A DNA stretch of 64,000 nucleotides, taken from the NCBI GenBank assembly GCA_903959175.1, contig CAJBVW010000449.1:12959-76958 (forward strand), read 5' to 3'. The position numbers and the translations under genes were made by a program. Positions within the stretch are counted from its first letter, which is position 1, and each line of letters begins with the position of its first letter. Shown piece by piece: positions 4,291 to 57,107 of this stretch. This DNA comes from an uncultured Pseudomonadota bacterium (GTDB lineage: Bacteria > Myxococcota_A > UBA796 > SXON01). A model generated the notes under the pieces. That model was given only the letters and a program-made list of their open reading frames with translations, made no database searches and was not told where the DNA came from.

Positions 4291-5139
4291 CTAGGCGCGC
4301 TCGTCGAGGAAGGCGGCGAGGTGCGCGGCGAGGGCGAGCGGCGCGTCCATCTGGGTCATGTGGCCGGCGCCGGGCACGTCCGCCACGGTGAGGTCCGGGA
4401 CCGCGGCCTCGAGCTTCGCCACCTCGGCGGCGGGGAACAACGAACGCTCCGGGTGGACGGAGAGCACGGGGCAGCGGATCGCGCCGAGGAAGGTGAGGTG
4501 CTGGTCCTGGCGGTACGGAGCCGCCGCGCGCACGAGGTGGCGCGGGTCGTAGCGCCACGCGAACCCGCCTTCGACCGCGCGGGTCCCGCGCTCGGCGAGC
4601 TCCCTCGCCCACGCGGGGTCCAGGCCGGTCCAGGTGGCGCGGAGGCGCTCCGCCGCGGCGTCGATCGTCGGGTGAGCGCGGTGCGCGCGCACGCGGCGCA
4701 GGCCGTCCAGGAACTCGACCATGCGCCCCCGCGCGCCGGCGCCGCCGTCGGGGATGCCGATGCCGTCCACCACGACGAGGCGCGTCACCGCGTCCGGCCG
4801 GGCCCCGGCGTACAACGTGGCGATCGTGCCGCCCATCGAGTGGCCCACGAGGCGCACGCACCCGCCGAGGTGGGCGACCAACGCGTCGACGTCCGCGACG
4901 TATTCGGGGAAGTGGTAGCTCTCGCCGGGGCCGCACCACGCGGAGTGGCCGTGGCCGCGCAGATCGAGCGCGACGACGTGACCGGTGAGGCGCTCGGCGA
5001 CGCGCGCCCAGCTCCCGGCGTGGTCGAGGAAGCCGTGGAGGAGGACGACCGGCGGGGATCCGTCGGGCTCACCCCACTCGAGGGCGGCGAAGGAGAGGCC
5101 GCGGAGCGTGTACGCGGCGTCGCGCGCGGCGCGGGTCAA
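4291..5139 (-). CDS. alpha/beta-fold hydrolase
   Basis: VVLLHGFLDH, nucleophile elbow GHSMGG, C-terminal GAGHMTQ. TTG at 5139 overlaps the stop of the upstream gene (TTGA). The start call is an inference. Confidence 0.8.
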   Translation of the reverse strand: MTRAARDAAYTLRGLSFAALEWGEPDGSPPVVLLHGFLDHAGSWARVAERLTGHVVALDLRGHGHSAWCGPGESYHFPEYVADVDALVAHLGGCVRLVGHSMGGTIATLYAGARPDAVTRLVVVDGIGIPDGGAGARGRMVEFLDGLRRVRAHRAHPTIDAAAERLRATWTGLDPAWARELAERGTRAVEGGFAWRYDPRHLVRAAAPYRQDQHLTFLGAIRCPVLSVHPERSLFPAAEVAKLEAAVPDLTVADVPGAGHMTQMDAPLALAAHLAAFLDERA

Positions 5140-6647
5140 ACGTCCCTCGCGAGGCGGAGGCCGATCTTGAGGCGGCCCGAGAGCGTGTGGGAGAGCCGGA
5201 GGGACGCCCGGATCGGGCCGTGCGCGAAGCTCCCGCCCATCACGACGCGGCCGCGGTCGGTGCGGTCCCGGTAGTACCCGGACGTGCACTCGAAGGCGTC
5301 GCCGATGGCGCCGTAGAGGCCGTATTGCGGGTACGTCGTCACCGGGGCGGTGCGGTCGCGACCGGAGTCGGCGGTGTTGGCGCGGGCGGACTCGAAGCGG
5401 TCGCCCCAGGGGAAGTGGCGACCGTCCCAGCCGCGCACCGCCTTCTCCCACTCGTCGGCGGAGGGCAAGCGCGCGCCAGCCCAGGCGGCGTAGGCGTCGC
5501 AATCCTCCGGGCGGAGCATCATCACCGGGTGGTCCGCGAGGTCCGGCGGGCACCGGCCGCCGCGCCAGTGCGAGAGCCGCTCGACCCAGGGCGGGCGCGG
5601 CCCGGTGGCGTCGAGGAAGCCCTGGAATTGACCGTTCGTGACGGCGTAGCGGGCCAGCGCGACGGGGTGGGCGAGGTGCTTGACGACCAGCGGGCGCTCG
5701 TCCGCGCCACGGGCGCCGCCGCTCACGAAGTTACCGCGGGGGACGTGAAGCCATGTGTCGTCGCTGGTCCAGCCGTCGAAGGCACCCGCGAGGAAGGCGC
5801 GCATGGCGCCGGAGAGGACGAGGCCGGTGAGGTCGTCGGGATCGCCCCCCTGGGCCGCTGCGAGCCGGCGCGCGAGACGACGCGCCACGAGGGCGTCGTA
5901 GAGCGAGCGGTGCCCGAAGCGCCAGCGGCCGTCGAGGTCCTCGACGAAGAGGCGCGCGGGGAGGCCCGCGAGGTCCTCGGCGCGGAAGGATCCGCCCTCG
6001 TGGGAGCGGTCGGGGTCGACGAGGGAGGCCCACGCGAGGGCCTCGAGCGCGTAGACTGCGCCGGTGCCAGAGAGGTGGTCCTCCACGAGCGCGGCGGGGG
6101 TGTCGCCGCGGGCCCCGCGCAACCACAACGACAGGAGCACGGCGTTGTCCGCGCAGAAGGCGGGGGCGCCCTCCGGCACCGGGTACGGCGCGATCTCGAC
6201 CATCGGGAGGTGGAAGCAGTCGACCTGGCCGGGGTCGGGCTCGGCGGCGTCGGTGCGGACGTGGCCGGGGCGGCTGGTGAGCACCCAGCGGCGCACGCGG
6301 GCGGTCAGCCACGCGACGAGCTCGGCGGCGCCGTCGTCGTCAGGGCGGCCGATCTCGTCGAGGCCGTCGAGGATGGCGGCGTCGGAGCCGCCGAGGAGCG
6401 CGGCGAGGGTGGCGGCGCGGTCCTTCGCGCGGGCGACCACGCGGAGCGGCACGACGGGCACGCCGACGCGGGCGCCGACGCGACGGGCGAGCTCCGTCTT
6501 CCCGGAGCCGAACACGCCGAGGAGCACGAGTCCGGTGCCGTCGCGGATGGCGGCCTCGACGAGGGGCTCCAGCGCGCCGGCGGGCGTGCGCACGATCGCG
6601 CCGCCCTCGCGCCGGATCCAGGTGCCGGTGGGGGGGATCCAGTCCAT
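5136..6647 (-). CDS. NACHT-like P-loop NTPase fused to a C-terminal FGE/sulfatase-modifying-factor (FGS) domain
   Basis: Walker A GVFGSGKT and Walker B AAILDGLDE (NACHT-type hhhhDGhDE). The C-terminal part carries FGE-fold motifs (RYAVTNGQF, LPSADEWEKA, VMGGSF). Start is at MDWIPP (6647) by frame arithmetic. Confidence 0.75.
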   Translation of the reverse strand: MDWIPPTGTWIRREGGAIVRTPAGALEPLVEAAIRDGTGLVLLGVFGSGKTELARRVGARVGVPVVPLRVVARAKDRAATLAALLGGSDAAILDGLDEIGRPDDDGAAELVAWLTARVRRWVLTSRPGHVRTDAAEPDPGQVDCFHLPMVEIAPYPVPEGAPAFCADNAVLLSLWLRGARGDTPAALVEDHLSGTGAVYALEALAWASLVDPDRSHEGGSFRAEDLAGLPARLFVEDLDGRWRFGHRSLYDALVARRLARRLAAAQGGDPDDLTGLVLSGAMRAFLAGAFDGWTSDDTWLHVPRGNFVSGGARGADERPLVVKHLAHPVALARYAVTNGQFQGFLDATGPRPPWVERLSHWRGGRCPPDLADHPVMMLRPEDCDAYAAWAGARLPSADEWEKAVRGWDGRHFPWGDRFESARANTADSGRDRTAPVTTYPQYGLYGAIGDAFECTSGYYRDRTDRGRVVMGGSFAHGPIRASLRLSHTLSGRLKIGLRLARDV

Positions 6648-6717
6648 GCGGGGGGCTAACGGATCGGCGGGGAGCGGGCGCGGTGCGGGCGGCCTCGGCA
6701 ACGGGTACGTGGCCGCG

Positions 6718-7350
6718 ATGCTGACGATCGATCCGCACCCCCTCCTCGCGCTGTCCGCCTTCACCGCGACCTTCCCCGCGCCGCTCGGCACGGTCGCCAC
6801 CCCGCCCGACGTGCTCGCGCTCCTCCAGGACGGCGCGGCCGCCCCCATGAGCAGCGACGACGCGACGCGCGCCGCCGTGCGGGACCTGTTGCGTCACGGC
6901 GGCTTCAAGCCCACCGGCCGCAGCAAGCCTGCGAGCGAGTACCTCATCAAGGCCGCCGCGGAGGGCATCCTCGGCCCCATCAACGCCGTGGTGGACGCGT
7001 GCAACGCCGTCTCCCTCCACAGCGGCCTCCCCATCAGCGTCGTCGACCTCGACCGCGCCGTGCTCGGTGACGTGGGCCTGCGCGTGGGCCTCGCCCCGGC
7101 GGACGCGACCTACGTCTTCAACGCCTCCGGCCAGACCATCGACGTCGCCGGGCTCCTCTGCCTCTTCGACGCCGAGGGCCCGTGCGCCAACGCGGTGAAG
7201 GACGCGCAACGCACGAAGACCACGCCCGAGACGCGGCGCACCCTCGTGATCGTGTGGGGATGCACCGCCGTCGGGGACCGCGTCGCCCGCGCCGCGGCCT
7301 GGTACCGCGCGCTCCTCGAGCAGGCCGGCGCGACGACCGCGGCGATGTGA
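6718..7350 (+). CDS. B3/B4 tRNA-binding-domain protein (PheT B3/4-like)
   Basis: 210-aa product containing RHGGFKPTGRSKPASEYL and NAVVDACNAVSL, which I recognise as B3/4-domain motifs. ATG at 6718. Confidence 0.65.
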   Translation: MLTIDPHPLLALSAFTATFPAPLGTVATPPDVLALLQDGAAAPMSSDDATRAAVRDLLRHGGFKPTGRSKPASEYLIKAAAEGILGPINAVVDACNAVSLHSGLPISVVDLDRAVLGDVGLRVGLAPADATYVFNASGQTIDVAGLLCLFDAEGPCANAVKDAQRTKTTPETRRTLVIVWGCTAVGDRVARAAAWYRALLEQAGATTAAM

Positions 7351-50722: not shown

Positions 50723-50923
50723 GTGATCAGCCAGCTCATCCGCGACGAAGAAGGCCAGTCCACCGTCGAGTACATGCTGCTCATCAGCGTGATCGTCATC
50801 GCCATGGTGGCCGCCGCCTACGCGTTCGTCCCCGTCTTCAAGCAGGGCGTCGAGGATCTCGCGCAGGACGTGAAGAAGATCCTCTCCACGGGCAAGATCG
50901 GCAGCGTCGGCACGTCCCGCTAA
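50723..50923 (+). CDS. Flp/Fap-family type IVb (Tad) pilin
   Basis: 66 aa reading VISQLIRDEEGQSTVEYMLLISVIVIAMVAAAY. This carries the G/xxxxEY prepilin motif followed by a hydrophobic helix. RBS AGGAG. Confidence 0.8.
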   Translation: MISQLIRDEEGQSTVEYMLLISVIVIAMVAAAYAFVPVFKQGVEDLAQDVKKILSTGKIGSVGTSR

Positions 50924-51856: not shown

Positions 51857-52009
51857 GGTGCCCCTCCTGGTCCCGCGAACTATCCCGGCGAGCCGTGACG
51901 TCACCGATGCAGGACGGGCACCCAGGAAAGCGCTTGCGAGACAAAACGTGGAGAGGTAGGATGCCTCCGCCCGCGGCCTCCCCCGGCACGGAACCCCAAG
52001 GAGACGTTC

Positions 52010-52654
52010 ATGACCCTTTTCGACAAGAGCTTCCGGCTCGCTCTGCTCGCCAGCGCCGCCCTCCTGACCGCCTGCCCGACGCCGAAGGACGACACCGGCA
52101 CCGGTGACACCGACGCCGACACCGACGCCGATTCCGACACGGACACCGATACGGACACCGACACGGACACCGACGCCGACGCGGACACCGGCATCGCGTA
52201 CTTCTCTTACGTCGGCGGCTTCGAGTCCGCCGACGGCACCGTGACCTCCGCCGAGTTCGGCGTCGGCTACGTGGGCGCCATCCAGGGCGACTTGATCTGC
52301 ACCGTCAAGGGCTCCATGGGCATCTCCGAGTCCGCCCCCGAGCCGGGCTGCCCGGACTGCGAGTGGGAGTTTCAGTCCGAGGGCGTCTCGGGCTCCACCG
52401 CGGTCGGTGACTACTGCGAGTCCCTCGGCGTGACCGACGGCTTCGCGGACGAAATCGGCGGGTACGGCTGGGGCTTCTCCTCCTACTACGGCTACGAGTA
52501 CGGCGGCGACGTGTACCCCCTCGATAACGTCGTCTTCCTCTACGTCGACGACGGCTGGTTCGCCTTCCTGGCGAACGACGACGTCGTCGGCTCTGCCGAG
52601 AGCCTGACGTTCTTGCGCACCTTTGAAGACTACTACTACTACTACTACCTGTAG
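52010..52654 (+). CDS. lipoprotein with a (Asp-Thr)n linker, a 4-Cys domain and a C-terminal YYYYYYL
   Basis: Lipobox LLTAC, DTDADTDADSDTDTDTDTDTDTDADADT, GCPDCEW. Ends with (TAC)6 CTG TAG. Confidence 0.75.
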   Translation: MTLFDKSFRLALLASAALLTACPTPKDDTGTGDTDADTDADSDTDTDTDTDTDTDADADTGIAYFSYVGGFESADGTVTSAEFGVGYVGAIQGDLICTVKGSMGISESAPEPGCPDCEWEFQSEGVSGSTAVGDYCESLGVTDGFADEIGGYGWGFSSYYGYEYGGDVYPLDNVVFLYVDDGWFAFLANDDVVGSAESLTFLRTFEDYYYYYYL

Positions 52655-52694
52655 TCGTAGCCCCCGCCCTCCGGCTCACAGCCGAGGGAGCAAG

Positions 52695-52737
52695 CACCCC
52701 GCTCCGGCCACGCGCCGGGGCGGGGTGTCCTGCTTTT
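52695..52737 (+). terminator. intrinsic terminator candidate
   Basis: CACCCCGC...GCGGGGTG stem followed by tcctgCTTTT, 40 nt after the stop at 52654. Confidence 0.6.
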
Positions 52738-52848
52738 GGGGTCGCGGCTTCTACCTCTCCCCCGTATCAAATTTGAGAAACTCACTCCCGGGCCTACATC
52801 AGGGGGGAGCCCGCGCTCCACCACCGCGCGGCCTCCGGAGACCCTTCG

Positions 52849-53511
52849 ATGCTCGCCCTCGCGACGCGCCGCACCCTCGCCCTCCTCCTCGGCGCCAGCG
52901 TGCTCACGGCCTGCCCCCCAAAGGGCGGGGGCCCCGACACCCCCGCCGACACCGACACCGACACCGACACCGATACGGACACCGACACCGAGACGCCCGA
53001 GGACACCGGCATCGCCAGCCTCTACTGGACCGGCACCTTCGAGACCGCGGCCGGGGAGTTCAGCTCCGCCACCCTCGGCTTCACCGGATACGGCCTCGTC
53101 GAGAAGGACTGGGTCTGCACCATCTCGGGCTCTCTCGCCTACGAAGGGGACGCCCCCGCCGGCTGCCCGGGCTGCGAGTGGGCGTTCGACCTCTCCGGGG
53201 TCAGCGCCTCGGACTCGACCGGCGCGCACTGCGACGGCTTCGGCGACACCATCTTCGCCGACAACGCCATCGACACCTACTTCGACTGGAGCTGGGGCTT
53301 CGCGCCGTCCTACACCTACTACGGCTCGGACGGCACGGCGTACCCCCTCGCGGAGACGCTGTTCATCAACCAGGACGGCACGAACTGGGGGCTGTTCGCC
53401 TTCAACTACGGCAGCAGCTTCCAGATGATCGAGGGCGACGCGACGTCGCTCTCGATCCTCGCGCAGGCGTCGGACGGGACCGCCAACATCTACTACTACT
53501 ACTACCGCTGA
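52849..53511 (+). CDS. paralogous lipoprotein with a (Asp-Thr)n linker, a 4-Cys domain and a C-terminal YYYYYR
   Basis: Lipobox VLTAC, DTDTDTDTDTDTDTET, GCPGCEW. Ends with (TAC)5 CGC TGA. It aligns by eye along its whole length with the 52010 product. Confidence 0.75.
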   Translation: MLALATRRTLALLLGASVLTACPPKGGGPDTPADTDTDTDTDTDTDTETPEDTGIASLYWTGTFETAAGEFSSATLGFTGYGLVEKDWVCTISGSLAYEGDAPAGCPGCEWAFDLSGVSASDSTGAHCDGFGDTIFADNAIDTYFDWSWGFAPSYTYYGSDGTAYPLAETLFINQDGTNWGLFAFNYGSSFQMIEGDATSLSILAQASDGTANIYYYYYR

Positions 53512-53520
53512 GCCGAGCGC

Positions 53521-54723
53521 TCAGCGCCCGCGGAGGGTCACCGGGACGAGGTGTTCGAGCTCCCGCAGGGGGCTCATGCGCACGGCGCGGTACTCCGCCT
53601 CGAGCGCGGGGAGCGCGTCGGTGCGGCCCTCGGCCCGCGCGAGGTACCACCTGCTGGCGAGGATCTCGGGGTCGGGCAGGCCCTCGTAGGCCGCGAGCAG
53701 CTCGTGGGCCTGCGCGTACTCGCCGCGGTCCACCGCCACGCGCACCCGGATCGAGTCGGGGTCGACGCCCTCGAGCACGCTCTGGGGGCGGTCGGCGAGG
53801 AACTCCACGGCCTCGTTCGCGTAGCCCATGCGCCGGTGGGCCTCGGCGCGGAGGTAGCGCGTCTGGTTGCCGCTGCGCAGGCTCGCGAGGCGGGCCAGGA
53901 TCGCCTCGCACTCGCGCGGGTTGTCCATATCGAGCCAGGACTGCGCCTGGAGCCGGCGGAGGTCGGCGCCGGCGCCGTCGTCACGCTCCCAGAGGGCGGC
54001 GACCTCGTCGAAGGCCTCGATGTCACCGTCGCGCAGGGCGAGGTTGGCCCGGGCGTACGCGGAGGCGTCGCGATCCTTGCGGAGGAAGAGGAGCTCCTCG
54101 AGCGCGTCGGCCGAGGCGGCGGTGTCCCCGATGGCGGCGGTGTCGAGGGCCAGGCTCGTGAGCGCGCGGGCGCTCTCGGGGGAGAGCTCGACCGCGAGGT
54201 GGTCGAAGTAGACGGCGTCGCCGAGCAGGCCGATCCGCCCGGAGCAGGTGGAGGCGGCCAGCGCGGCGTCCCCGCCGAAGGGGAGCGTGCCGACGTAGGG
54301 CCAGAGGTGCAGGAGGGCCTCCTCGCACCGTCCCATGCGGGTGAGCGCCTTGCCGAGCCCCACGTGCGCGGCCGCGGCGTCCGGGTTCTTGTCGAGCTGC
54401 TTGCGGAAGGCGCCCGCGGCGGCCTTGTTGCCGCCCTTCTTCAGGAACATGTTCCCGGCGCCGAGCGGCGGGCGTTGCTTACCGTCCTTCCCCGCCGCGG
54501 CCCCGCCCTCGGCGGCACCTTTGCCGCCCCCGCCGCCCCCGCCGCCCTTGGGGCCCTCTCCCTTCCCCATCGCGCGCGGTCCACGACCGCCGCCGGGGCC
54601 CCGCTTGCCCTCGCCGTGACGCGGCGCGTCCGGCCCGGCGGGCGGCGGGCTGTTCCCCATCAGGGCGAGCGCCCCGAGCATGAGCCCGACGGCCCAGATC
54701 GATCCCCGGCGCGGCGCGTTCAT
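53521..54723 (-). CDS. TPR-repeat protein with an N-terminal Gly/Lys/Pro-rich low-complexity region
   Basis: Signal or TM segment IWAVGLMLGALALMG, then GKGEGPKGGGGGGGGKGAAEGG, then TPR-like helices. ATGA overlap with the upstream gene. Confidence 0.7.
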   Translation of the reverse strand: MNAPRRGSIWAVGLMLGALALMGNSPPPAGPDAPRHGEGKRGPGGGRGPRAMGKGEGPKGGGGGGGGKGAAEGGAAAGKDGKQRPPLGAGNMFLKKGGNKAAAGAFRKQLDKNPDAAAAHVGLGKALTRMGRCEEALLHLWPYVGTLPFGGDAALAASTCSGRIGLLGDAVYFDHLAVELSPESARALTSLALDTAAIGDTAASADALEELLFLRKDRDASAYARANLALRDGDIEAFDEVAALWERDDGAGADLRRLQAQSWLDMDNPRECEAILARLASLRSGNQTRYLRAEAHRRMGYANEAVEFLADRPQSVLEGVDPDSIRVRVAVDRGEYAQAHELLAAYEGLPDPEILASRWYLARAEGRTDALPALEAEYRAVRMSPLRELEHLVPVTLRGR

Positions 54724-57107
54724 TGATTCCCCCCGGCCGGGACGGCGCCCGCCTTCGGCATGGGCTTCGGCGCGGCGGGCGCGCTCGGGGTCGGCACACC
54801 GCCCTTCGCGGGGTCCTTCCCGGCCGCGGCGGCCTTCTGGGCCTCGATGCGGCGGTCGTTCGCGGCGTTCGCCGCCTTGAGCATGGCGAGCCCCTCTTCG
54901 CGCTTGCCCTCCTTCGCGAGGAGGTTGGCGTTGAGGAGGAGCGCGTCGGGGTCCTCGGGCGCGAGCTCGAGCACGCTGTCGAGCGCGTTGCGCGCGCCGT
55001 CATACTCGCCCAGGTTGAAGAGGCACTGCGCGAGCGCGCGGAGCGGGCCGGGCTGATCGGGGCTGGCCCGCGCGAGGAACGCGATGTGGTCGCGCTGATC
55101 GAGCCAGCGCTGGTCCTCGGCGTACATGCGCGAGAGCATCTGTCGCGCATTCCGGTTGCCGGGGTAGTCCGCCACCTCGCCCTCGAGGAGGTTGTAGGCG
55201 TCCGCGCGGGCCCCCGCGCTGAGCGCCATGATCGCGAGCTGGGAGCGCGCGGCGCGGCGCGGGTTCGGCCCGCTCACGGCGAGGCGGAGGTAGCGCTCGG
55301 CGTTCGGGAAGTCCTTCACGACGAGGGACTCGCGCCCGAGGATCGCGGCGACGCCGTAGTTCTTGGGGTCGGCCGCGAGGGCGGCCGCGGCCTCCTTCAT
55401 GCCGTCCTCCTTCCGGCCGAGCCGGAAGAGGGCCTCGACCACGGCCTCGCGCGCGCCGGCGTCGAGGGGATCGGCCTCGACGGCCTTGCGGGCGTAGGTG
55501 AGCGCCTGCTCGCCGTCCTGGTCCTGCATCGCCATCGTCGCGAGCATGAGCCACACGCGCGAGCGCGTCGGGAACATCGCCGAGGTCTCCTCCGCGAACA
55601 CCCGCGCTTCCTCGCGCCGCTCGAGCCGCGCCAGGAGCGAGAGCCGGCGCATACGGATCTCGAACGCGTCCGGCTTCTTGGCCAGGAGCGCGTCGACCTC
55701 GGCGAGGAGCTGCTCGGGGGTGCTGCCGTCGCCCTTGCCCTGCTCGAAGCGCGCGGCGAACTTCAGGATCTCCGGGTAGTCCTTCGCGTCGGGGAGCGTG
55801 AGGGGGTCGATGTCGTCCCCCCCGCCGGTGACGTACCCGAGGGCGGCGAGCTGCGCGACGGTCTCGGCGTCCATCGCGGCGCGGGTGGCGCTCGGGGGAG
55901 CGGCGCCGAGCGCGGCGAGCTTCTCCTGGAGGCGCTTCACGTCGTCGGGGCGGCTCTCGGCGAGGTTGGTCGTCTCGCCGGGGTCGGCGTCGAGGTCGTA
56001 GAGCTCGGGCTTGGGGGTCGCGATGAGCTTGAGCCGGCCGTCCACTAGGGTGCGGTGGGGTGCGAGCCGGAAGCGATCCGCGAGGAGGTAGCTCTCGGAG
56101 TACGGCGTGACCGGGGTGCCCGGCTGGGGCTTGCCGTCGAGCCCGTCGGGCACCGGCACGGAGAGCATCTTGAGGAGGGTCGGCGTGAGGTCGCCGGTGC
56201 TCACCGGCGCCGTGACGACGCCCGCTGGCACGCCCGCGCCCGAGACGATCCAGGGGACGTGCTGCGTGGCGTCGTAGGTGAAGAGCCCGTGCGACACCTC
56301 GTCGTGCTCGCCGAGCGACTCGCCGTGGTCCCCGATGAGGGCCCAGAGCACGTTGCGGCCCTCGAAGGCCTCGACGAGGCGGCCGACCTGGTCGTCGACG
56401 TAGGCGAGCTCGGCGTCGTAGGGGCGGTCCTTCATCGACTCGGCGTAGGCCCCGCGCGCGACGTAGGGGTAGTGCGCGTCGTAGAGGTGCACCCAGAGGA
56501 ACACCGGCTGATCCTCGGGCTGTCCGGCGAGCCAGTTCAGCGCGTCGTCCACGACGAGGTCGCCGGAGCGCTCGTTGTGCCAGTAGTTCTTGTCCTTGCT
56601 CCCTGGCTCCGGCTCGGGCATCGAGTCGAAGTAGGCCCCGAAGCCCTGGGAGAAGCCCCACTGCCGCGTGGTCACGAACGCCGCGACGCTCGCCGCGGTG
56701 GCCCACCCCTGCCCGCGGAGGATCTCCGCGAGGGTGGTGAACTCGGGCGCGAGCACGTTGTCGCCGTTGCCGCGCACGTTGTGGTGGAAGGGCAGCAGGC
56801 CGGTGAACATCGTCGCGTGCGCGGGGATGGTGAGCGGGAGCGGCGAATAGGCGTGCTCGAACCGGATGCCCTGGTTGGCGAGGCGGTCGATCGTGTCGGT
56901 CTGCGCGCCCTTGTAGCCGTACGCGCCGAGGCGATCCGCGCGCGTGGTGTCGAGGGTGACCACGACGACATCCGGCTTTGCTCCTTTGAGCACCGGGGTC
57001 GTCGTGATCTGCGTGGCTCCGCCCGAGCAGGCGGCGAGGAGGTGGAGGAGCAAAGCGGACCCCGAGCGGCCGGCACCGTAGCGCCGCATTTCGAGCGCAG
57101 CAAGCAA
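54720..57107 (-). CDS. sulfatase-like (alkaline-phosphatase superfamily) hydrolase/transferase fused to C-terminal TPR repeats; lipoprotein
   Basis: Lipobox LLAAC, VVVTLDTTRADRLGAYGY metal site, LPLTIPAHATMFTG at the nucleophile position (Thr, not Cys/Ser-x-P-x-R), GDHGE. About 350 aa of TPR follow. Confidence 0.85.
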   Translation of the reverse strand: MLAALEMRRYGAGRSGSALLLHLLAACSGGATQITTTPVLKGAKPDVVVVTLDTTRADRLGAYGYKGAQTDTIDRLANQGIRFEHAYSPLPLTIPAHATMFTGLLPFHHNVRGNGDNVLAPEFTTLAEILRGQGWATAASVAAFVTTRQWGFSQGFGAYFDSMPEPEPGSKDKNYWHNERSGDLVVDDALNWLAGQPEDQPVFLWVHLYDAHYPYVARGAYAESMKDRPYDAELAYVDDQVGRLVEAFEGRNVLWALIGDHGESLGEHDEVSHGLFTYDATQHVPWIVSGAGVPAGVVTAPVSTGDLTPTLLKMLSVPVPDGLDGKPQPGTPVTPYSESYLLADRFRLAPHRTLVDGRLKLIATPKPELYDLDADPGETTNLAESRPDDVKRLQEKLAALGAAPPSATRAAMDAETVAQLAALGYVTGGGDDIDPLTLPDAKDYPEILKFAARFEQGKGDGSTPEQLLAEVDALLAKKPDAFEIRMRRLSLLARLERREEARVFAEETSAMFPTRSRVWLMLATMAMQDQDGEQALTYARKAVEADPLDAGAREAVVEALFRLGRKEDGMKEAAAALAADPKNYGVAAILGRESLVVKDFPNAERYLRLAVSGPNPRRAARSQLAIMALSAGARADAYNLLEGEVADYPGNRNARQMLSRMYAEDQRWLDQRDHIAFLARASPDQPGPLRALAQCLFNLGEYDGARNALDSVLELAPEDPDALLLNANLLAKEGKREEGLAMLKAANAANDRRIEAQKAAAAGKDPAKGGVPTPSAPAAPKPMPKAGAVPAGGNQ

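Follow-up and report, generated by a model that had tools for sequence, protein, structure and literature searches.

Described protein systems resemble, each in some respects, the two genes analyzed here. LolA/LolB-like, calycin/lipocalin/avidin-like, and TbpB/fHbp C-lobe lipoproteins combine a lipobox, a low-complexity tether, and one all-beta meander domain of ~150 amino acids. Outer membrane proteins (OMPs) have an aromatic-rich last beta-strand at or near the C terminus, the beta-signal, which ends in F, Y, or W. Cittilins and biarylitides, which are peptides made on the ribosome and modified after translation (RiPPs), have myxobacterial core peptides with consecutive Tyr residues at the C terminus, and they are encoded as short precursor peptides beside a P450. 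MYXO-CTERM is a conserved signature at the C termini of envelope proteins and is restricted to Myxococcota. It consists of a Cys motif, a transmembrane helix, and a basic tail, borne by many unrelated passenger domains (PMC11980579). The window analyzed here is a stretch of 64,000 nucleotides (73% G+C) from the metagenome-derived genome of an uncultured bacterium (contig CAJBVW010000449.1; GTDB lineage Myxococcota_A). It contains two adjacent genes, which we call A (52010 to 52654) and B (52849 to 53511), encoding predicted lipoproteins that end in a run of Tyr residues. Both belong to a lipoprotein domain family that has not been described before and that, to date, has been met only in metagenome genomes of the Myxococcota type.

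A and B are indeed genes, and they are tandem paralogs, located on the + strand and encoding lipoprotein precursors of 214 and 220 amino acids. An initial annotation of the window had described two adjacent genes of these lengths with one architecture, and the open reading frames (ORFs) are where it placed them. Its estimate by eye of 30 to 35% identity between the two proteins was too low; BLASTP gave 42% (E = 3e-25). At third codon positions, the G+C content (GC3) of A (0.94) and B (0.97) is similar to that of neighboring genes. Gene A has the orthologs P0002 and P0003, and its product matched the family profile described below with an E value of 5.5e-67. The product of gene B also matched that profile and is 98% identical within the domain to P0001, and the ratio of nonsynonymous to synonymous substitution rates (dN/dS) for gene B is 0.3 to 0.55.

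Common to both proteins are a lipobox, an (Asp-Thr)n linker, four Cys residues, a GCP(D/G)CEW motif, a WGF motif, and the Tyr tail. The signal peptide and lipobox are encoded at 52010 to 52075 in A and at 52849 to 52914 in B. Both fit the lipobox pattern [LVI][ASTVI][GAS]C, as ALLTA-C22 in A (Cys22 codon, 52073 to 52075) and SVLTA-C22 in B (Cys22 codon, 52912 to 52914), in agreement with the LLTAC and VLTAC that had been reported. A and B are predicted bacterial lipoproteins, that is, substrates of Lgt and LspA. The tether that follows is acidic and Asp/Thr-rich in A (52076 to 52189) and Asp/Thr/Pro-rich in B (52915 to 53007). The (Asp-Thr)n linker of the initial annotation is encoded by (GACACC)n-type hexamer DNA repeats at 52106 to 52190 and 52934 to 52991. 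The rest of each protein is a predicted all-beta C-terminal domain with four Cys residues, delimited in A by its model and the conservation table (52190 to 52651; 154 amino acids) and located in B at 53008 to 53508 (167 amino acids). GCPDCEW is encoded at 52346 to 52366 in A and GCPGCEW at 53161 to 53181 in B. All four Cys residues that had been called conserved are present in both genes, and they occupy positions 37, 54, 57, and 76 of the A domain. At the end of gene A, six TAC codons (52631 to 52648) precede CTG and TAG, giving ...YYYYYYL; they encode Tyr148 to Tyr153 of the domain, in the predicted last strand (residues 138 to 151). At the end of gene B, five TAC codons (53491 to 53505) precede CGC and TGA, giving ...YYYYYR; they encode Tyr162 to Tyr166, of which residues 162 to 164 are modeled as a short final strand. 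Both codon runs are as the initial annotation had them.

We searched for relatives exhaustively with HMMER, using a five-sequence profile of the domain against 1.84 billion cluster representatives (50% identity clusters). There were 127 clusters at E ≤ 1e-3 and 82 at E ≤ 1e-10. Nearly all members have 200 to 230 amino acids, an N-terminal Cys lipobox, and an acidic linker, and a lipobox-like motif was found in 106 of the 128 N-terminally complete members. Eleven of the 89 aligned members are longer and have Cys-rich repeats of the MopE type (PF11617) between the linker and the Tyr-tail domain (for example, at locus L004). PF11617, N-terminal to the Tyr-tail domain, was the only real Pfam match across these 89 members. 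Whatever precedes it, the Tyr-tail domain is the last element of the protein in nearly all matches, and about nine members have a few extra residues after it.

The suspicion of the initial annotation that this family is undescribed was upheld. Against Pfam and NCBIfam, neither A nor B had a match above the curated cutoffs; the matches seen below them were to low-complexity Asp-Thr sequence and to the rubredoxin knuckle (CPxC). A sequence-profile search of the PDB gave only zinc-finger-like noise on the CPxC knuckle, and comparison of the predicted fold with the PDB gave no significant match (see below). The source names of sampled members were all "hypothetical protein," except for one metal-binding-motif label on MopE-repeat proteins. 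Our literature search found nothing on a Tyr-tail lipoprotein family or motif. A word-index protein search with A and B returned three close relatives only (on contigs L001, L002, and L003), and the same kind of search with the 89-sequence alignment was dominated by Asp-Thr words and scored nine proteins. The few taxonomically labeled clusters come from Myxococcota-type metagenome-assembled genomes (MAGs). Six loci in the species-representative genome collection are likewise all from MAGs, which are labeled Myxococcota, Deltaproteobacteria, proteobacterium, Pseudomonadota, and Klebsiella pneumoniae. The Klebsiella label, on locus L006 (CAMAWH010000015.1; 65% GC), is almost certainly a taxonomic error. 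In addition to its family member, L006 encodes ABC exporters homologous to those of L007.

As judged from the alignments, the Tyr run is conserved at the protein level and is a signature of the family. The sets counted were 129 retrieved sequences, 128 N-terminally complete members, 120 C-terminally complete members, and 89 aligned sequences; run lengths and last residues were counted in 114. At least three Tyr residues are present among the last eight residues in 104 of the 120 C-terminally complete members, and at least four in 77. By comparison, 4.2% of internal 8-mers of the family domains contain at least three. When the last eight columns were dropped from the profile, it still recovered 128 of the 129 sequences at E ≤ 1e-3 at full database size. 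The five tail columns hold Tyr in 82, 65, 67, 76, and 68 of the 89 aligned sequences, which is comparable with the conservation of the invariant Cys, Trp, and Gly columns. The last residue varies: 30 of 114 members end in P, 26 in L, 20 in Y, and 19 in R. Two relatives that were found through the GCPxCEW pattern alone, at L008 and L009, end in YYYFYY. The initial annotation, which argued for selection on the tail, had raised beforehand the possibility that homologs lack it. They do not: the tail is kept in homologs down to ~30% identity, and the argument for selection stands.

The tail also appears to be confined to this family in the DNA compared. Among 924 stop-to-stop ORFs of at least 80 amino acids in 150 kb of related DNA, only family members had at least three Tyr residues in their last eight. 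A scan of metagenome DNA for (TAC)5-NNN-stop returned mostly low-GC noncoding microsatellites, with no family member among the matches listed. To our knowledge, conserved homopolymeric Tyr runs are very rare in bacterial proteins. One other case was seen in that scan, on a metagenome contig of 51% GC (L054; 49 to 2115, - strand). It is a 688-amino-acid ORF that ends in ...CPQCGYC...GGYYYYYYY and is not a family member by the tail-less profile. Of the 120 (TAC)5 loci scanned among the matches listed, no other gave a long ORF ending in poly-Tyr.

To describe the domain, AlphaFold2 models of A and B were built with the 89-sequence alignment. For both domains the mean predicted local distance difference test score (pLDDT) was 97.3 and the predicted template modeling score was 0.89. 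Each model shows an all-beta meander with eight to nine strands, which are mostly 11 to 15 residues long; the conserved CPxC lies in the loop that leads into strand 4, and a 20-residue loop holds the fourth Cys. In model A, the last strand (residues 138 to 151) includes Tyr148 to Tyr151. In model B, the loop ASDGTANI is followed by the short final strand of Tyr162 to Tyr164. The tail blocks had pLDDT values of 93 to 97 and were assigned as beta-strand. Foldseek searches with the two models against the PDB, and also against BFVD, gave no match at E ≤ 1e-3. The top ranks (E = 0.03 to 1; TM score, 0.16 to 0.26; root mean square deviation above 10 Å) were LolB, LolA, VioE, nitrobindin, streptavidin, and retinol-binding protein, all of which are open or closed up-and-down barrels. 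The models suggest that the Tyr-tail domain is a new all-beta fold without a significant PDB counterpart and that the Tyr run lies inside its last strand.

The domain is 20% aromatic, 13 to 16% Gly, 12 to 16% Asp plus Glu, and 1.3% Lys plus Arg, which fits its earlier description as rich in Gly and aromatic residues. None of the strand faces checked was hydrophobic enough for a membrane barrel, and this, together with the composition, favors a soluble domain. Alignment columns 6 and 7, in the first strand, hold Y, F, or W in most members, and the strand order suggests that the last strand probably packs against this aromatic first strand. From the same strand order we infer two disulfides, C37-C76 and C54-C57, the latter in the GCPxC(E/D)W loop. 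A metal site formed by the four Cys residues was considered and judged unlikely, as C37/C76 and C54/C57 lie at opposite ends in the modeled arrangement of strands.

Gene A is also an island of divergence. Between the window and its relative L002, the flanks, gene B, and the spacers are 98 to 100% identical, whereas the part of gene A encoding the mature protein (52190 to 52668) is 62 to 93% identical per 60-nucleotide segment. The analysis of this difference used three sequences: the window, L002, and L001 as the outgroup. On the branch leading to the window, gene A had 8 synonymous changes, 46 nonsynonymous changes, and 3 in-frame deletions. Gene B had 4 synonymous and 2 nonsynonymous changes and the adjacent Metallophos gene had 5 and 0, with no in-frame deletions seen in either. 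The changes in gene A avoid the Cys-loop segment (52294 to 52460) and the Tyr tail. Diversifying selection on an exposed protein, or the import of a divergent allele for one, would fit this pattern, and relaxed constraint on gene A may also account for it. Such local hypervariability hints at a surface-exposed, selected role. Two other sources of change were considered and rejected. A diversity-generating retroelement does not agree with substitutions that are not adenine-biased, and the only other copy in the window is the paralog B. Gene conversion from B into A was set aside in that the changes seem not to copy B, in alignments judged by eye.

What might these proteins be? With moderate confidence, we consider A and B to be tethered envelope lipoproteins with a new aromatic- and Gly-rich, all-beta C-terminal fold, in which the run of five Tyr residues is the terminal strand, kept for packing and probably also as a Tyr-lined surface. 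According to this proposal, A and B would be separately transcribed tandem paralogs of an unannotated lipoprotein family, each made with a Sec/Lsp signal peptide and lipobox and a tether of ~30 to 40 acidic Asp/Thr residues, and presumably located at the outer membrane. In some relatives, extra Cys-rich repeats of the MopE type would stand ahead of the domain. The C-terminal domain of ~155 amino acids would be all-beta, aromatic, glycine-rich, and acidic, with its four invariant Cys residues in two putative disulfides. The run of about five Tyr residues would be the end of its last beta-strand, with the free C terminus 0 to 2 residues further on. One face of this strand would pack into an aromatic core or seam, probably beside the equally aromatic first strand, and the other face would offer a Tyr-lined surface to a partner, a ligand, or a membrane interface. 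A requirement for both strand faces would account for the conservation of the Tyr run at the protein level. Judging from the models, the role of the tail is most likely structural or that of an interaction surface.

Some points weigh against this proposal. Simple core packing does not call for conserved Tyr on the two faces of an edge strand or a terminal one, which leaves room for a role in recognition. The local geometry differs between the models, with the tail continuing a long strand in A and forming a short strand after a loop in B. How far each Tyr is buried, which strand pairs with the last one, and how far apart the Cys residues lie are all deduced from the predicted strands, and the evidence on A and B consists of sequences and models. 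Also, the comparison of the tail with the ends of other domains covers 150 kb.

Different explanations for the Tyr run were weighed against this one. The initial annotation had pointed to slippage in the perfect trinucleotide repeat, and (TAC)n might be under selection as a contingency microsatellite, with slipped-strand mispairing changing the length of the tail. The repeats are indeed perfect (18 and 15 bp), and A has six Tyr residues here versus five in two related strains. However, all 31 Tyr codons of A and B are TAC, as are 37 of 39 in neighboring genes. Because TAC is virtually the sole Tyr codon used here, and the GC3 bias of A and B is extreme (94 to 97%), any poly-Tyr in this genome reads as (TAC)n. 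L006, at 65% GC, encodes YYYYYY as TAT TAT TAC TAT TAC TAC, and the runs at L005, L008, and L009 are interrupted by Phe codons (TTC or TTT); in each case the aromatic run stays. The longest Tyr run over the 114 members is mostly 2 to 5 residues (3 and 5 are the commonest, and 7 is the maximum). Across three strains the Tyr count is 6/5/5 in A and 5/5/5 in B, and the one difference lies in a segment with many substitutions plus indels, where slippage is not the only possible cause. A contingency locus would combine repeat-number polymorphism among strains with a functional switch. Here the repeat is in frame, triplet slippage is unable to turn a gene on or off, tails are interrupted, and their length is constrained. 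We give the microsatellite explanation very little weight; the perfect (TAC)n is, on these codon counts, a by-product of codon bias and not a selected DNA feature. It is also improbable that the tail residues are substrates for covalent chemistry, such as dityrosine formation into a matrix or spore coat, RiPP-like aryl cross-links, sulfation, or phosphorylation. The chemistry of a homopolymeric Tyr run lends itself to radical coupling, C-terminal Tyr-rich cores give rise to Tyr-cross-linked peptides in myxobacteria (cittilin, YIYY), and a sulfatase-family gene lies two genes downstream. However, the tail is modeled as an ordered strand of a folded domain of 155 amino acids, and no P450, radical-SAM, MNIO, laccase, or peroxidase gene was found beside the genes examined, in the part of the neighbors that was scanned. 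A sulfatase takes sulfate off and does not add it, and this sulfatase/TPR neighbor is syntenic only in close relatives and L005, being absent from L004 and from L006 to L009.

The Tyr-rich C terminus might instead be recognized by an envelope machine or serve in self-assembly, whether as an OMP-like C-terminal beta-signal, through the strands of a Slam-type export barrel, or as a handle for strand complementation or oligomerization. We regard this as unlikely, with evidence on both sides. Members end 0 to 2 residues past the last Tyr in 98 of 114 cases, Tyr is conserved on both strand faces, and the domain comes last whatever precedes it. In addition, the Gly- and aromatic-rich beta composition recalls outer membrane proteins, and gene A evolves like a gene for an exposed protein. 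However, 75 of the 114 members end in P, L, or R and only 25 in an aromatic residue, about nine have 4 to 21 residues after the run, and there is no hydrophobic strand face. Foldseek matched no OmpA, OmpX, PagP, TbpB, or fHbp barrel, and no Slam-like/DUF560 or other transporter gene was conserved nearby among the neighbors scanned. The initial annotation had proposed a sorting or recognition tag, a cross-link site, or an enzyme substrate. We found no support for these ideas, with the tail modeled as an integral strand (pLDDT > 93), no conserved enzyme or transporter, and a variable last residue. Nor does the tail look like a modular tag, as in the small sample of 150 kb it was found on this domain only. 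A small transmembrane beta-barrel, with the tail as its membrane-insertion signal, is scarcely credible. A length of ~150 amino acids, 8 to 9 long antiparallel strands, high Gly and aromatic content, and an aromatic C terminus would suit a barrel, but a lipobox, a long acidic tether, and four invariant Cys residues would not. Asp plus Glu make up 12 to 16% of the domain, charged or polar residues are on both strand faces, loop lengths lack a long-short alternation, and no OMP barrel was among the Foldseek matches. A more speculative idea, which we consider doubtful, is that the Tyr5 strand is a functional handle (for export or assembly, as a Tyr zipper, or for cross-linking) of exposed, tethered Myxococcota lipoproteins and that A is a polymorphic surface determinant under diversifying selection. 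If true, this would bear on phage, predator, or kin recognition, and it would explain why A alone diverges while its Cys loop and tail are kept.

Whichever role the tail has, A and B are predicted to be separately transcribed. A possible sigma-70-like promoter of A (TTGCGA, 17 nucleotides, TAGGAT; 51934 to 51962, + strand) can be read upstream. It falls below the threshold of a consensus scan, and the block that holds it is nearly invariant in three strains, being kept in L001 and L002. A Shine-Dalgarno-like AAGGAG (51998 to 52003, + strand), 6 nucleotides 5' of the ATG, is kept in the same two contigs. Downstream of A is a double hairpin with a T-run (52667 to 52738, + strand), likely an intrinsic terminator, that is 98 to 100% identical in three strains. 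The initial annotation had reported a terminator-like stem and T-run 3' of gene A, and these were found at 52694 to 52728 plus CCTGCTTTTG. A 91-nucleotide spacer segment after A folds into two hairpins (-59.4 kcal/mol; z = -4.5). Gene B is preceded by a conserved leader, a promoter-like spacer of putative function (52772 to 52848, + strand; TTGAGA ... TACATC), with GGAG 8 nucleotides 5' of its ATG. The noncoding blocks at 51920 to 52009, 52655 to 52738, and 52789 to 52848 are better conserved among the three strains than the coding sequence of A, and they are 92 to 100% identical even to L001, which is ~90% identical overall. The leader of gene B folds moderately well (z = -2.4); upstream of A, no structure was predicted. 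An Rfam scan of the whole window gave no match.

The order of genes around the pair is kept in L001, L002, and L003: Metallophos (-), A, B, a weak-TPR gene (-), and a sulfatase plus TPR gene (-). The weak-TPR gene (53521 to 54723, - strand; 400 amino acids) is convergent with B and has a Gly/Pro/Lys-rich N-terminal region and only weak TPR matches. The gene after it (54720 to 57107, - strand; 795 amino acids) encodes a fusion of a sulfatase with C-terminal TPR repeats. Both genes have syntenic counterparts in L001 and L005, and their 4-nucleotide overlap suggests that they form one operon. L005, from a Myxococcota MAG, has an orthologous neighborhood with 50 to 63% protein identity and three tandem family genes (5090 to 7203). 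The tails of these genes read YYYYYYP, YYYFYYP, and, in degenerate form, YVTYTYER, and the first two genes are in different frames and nearly abut. At L007, two family genes adjoin the same Metallophos gene. The neighbors at other loci vary and include ABC exporters, FtsH, methyltransferases, a DAO plus Rieske oxidoreductase, a MopE plus C-type-lectin protein, and a protein like those of phage baseplates or type VI secretion systems. No conserved partner beyond lineage synteny was found near family genes in the loci compared, where part of the neighbors were domain-scanned. The lectin protein, which adjoins the family gene at L008 (6612 to 8294, - strand), has 560 amino acids, with five metal-binding-motif repeats of the MopE type and a C-terminal C-type lectin domain. 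MopE repeats occur both in this neighbor and in 11 of 89 family members, and therefore these modules may be shuffled among the envelope proteins of this group. Elsewhere in the window, a 66-amino-acid ORF (50723 to 50920, + strand) contains ...EEGQSTVEYMLLISVIVIAMVAAAYAF..., which we take to be similar to Flp-type pilins in its processing motif (G/XXXXEY) and hydrophobic stem. It had no Pfam match at E ≤ 1e-3, and it is 98% conserved in L001 to L003.

The persistence of the Tyr run as a family signature at ~30% overall identity gives this family its interest. An unannotated family with a confidently predicted fold and no PDB counterpart is a candidate for a new Pfam/NCBIfam domain. Should the tail do more than pack (by signaling assembly, forming a Tyr zipper, or providing a cross-link site), it would be a new C-terminal motif in the envelope biology of Myxococcota. 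If it is purely structural, the family would be a modest addition, one more domain of unknown function.

How do A and B compare with the described systems? Unlike the tethered beta-barrel lipoproteins, this family has four invariant Cys residues, a GCPxCxW loop, and 20% aromatic residues, and the best match to a known fold had an E value of 0.03 and a TM score of ~0.2. We know of no LolA/LolB-, calycin-, or TbpB/fHbp-type family with a conserved Tyr5 C-terminal strand. Surface lipoproteins of the Slam/TXISS type would bring a C-terminal, 8-stranded TbpB/fHbp-like barrel and an adjacent gene for a DUF560 outer membrane protein; no such barrel was matched, and DUF560 was not among the shared neighbors in the part that was scanned. 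Compared with the OMP beta-signal, which would come with an aromatic last residue, a hydrophobic outer face, and a Foldseek match of the OmpA/OmpX/PagP type, A and B had none of the three. Instead, A ends in L and B in R, the family ends mostly in P, L, or R, and the predicted domain is that of a soluble, acidic lipoprotein. Unlike the cittilins and biarylitides, A and B are predicted to be folded lipoproteins of 214 to 220 amino acids, with no adjacent modifying enzyme. Neither protein has the hydrophobic helix of MYXO-CTERM at its ends, and the NCBIfam MXAN_5453 match had an E value of 1.8. In contrast to that signature, this family has no transmembrane segment, its motif appears to be part of the fold, and it was seen on one domain family only.

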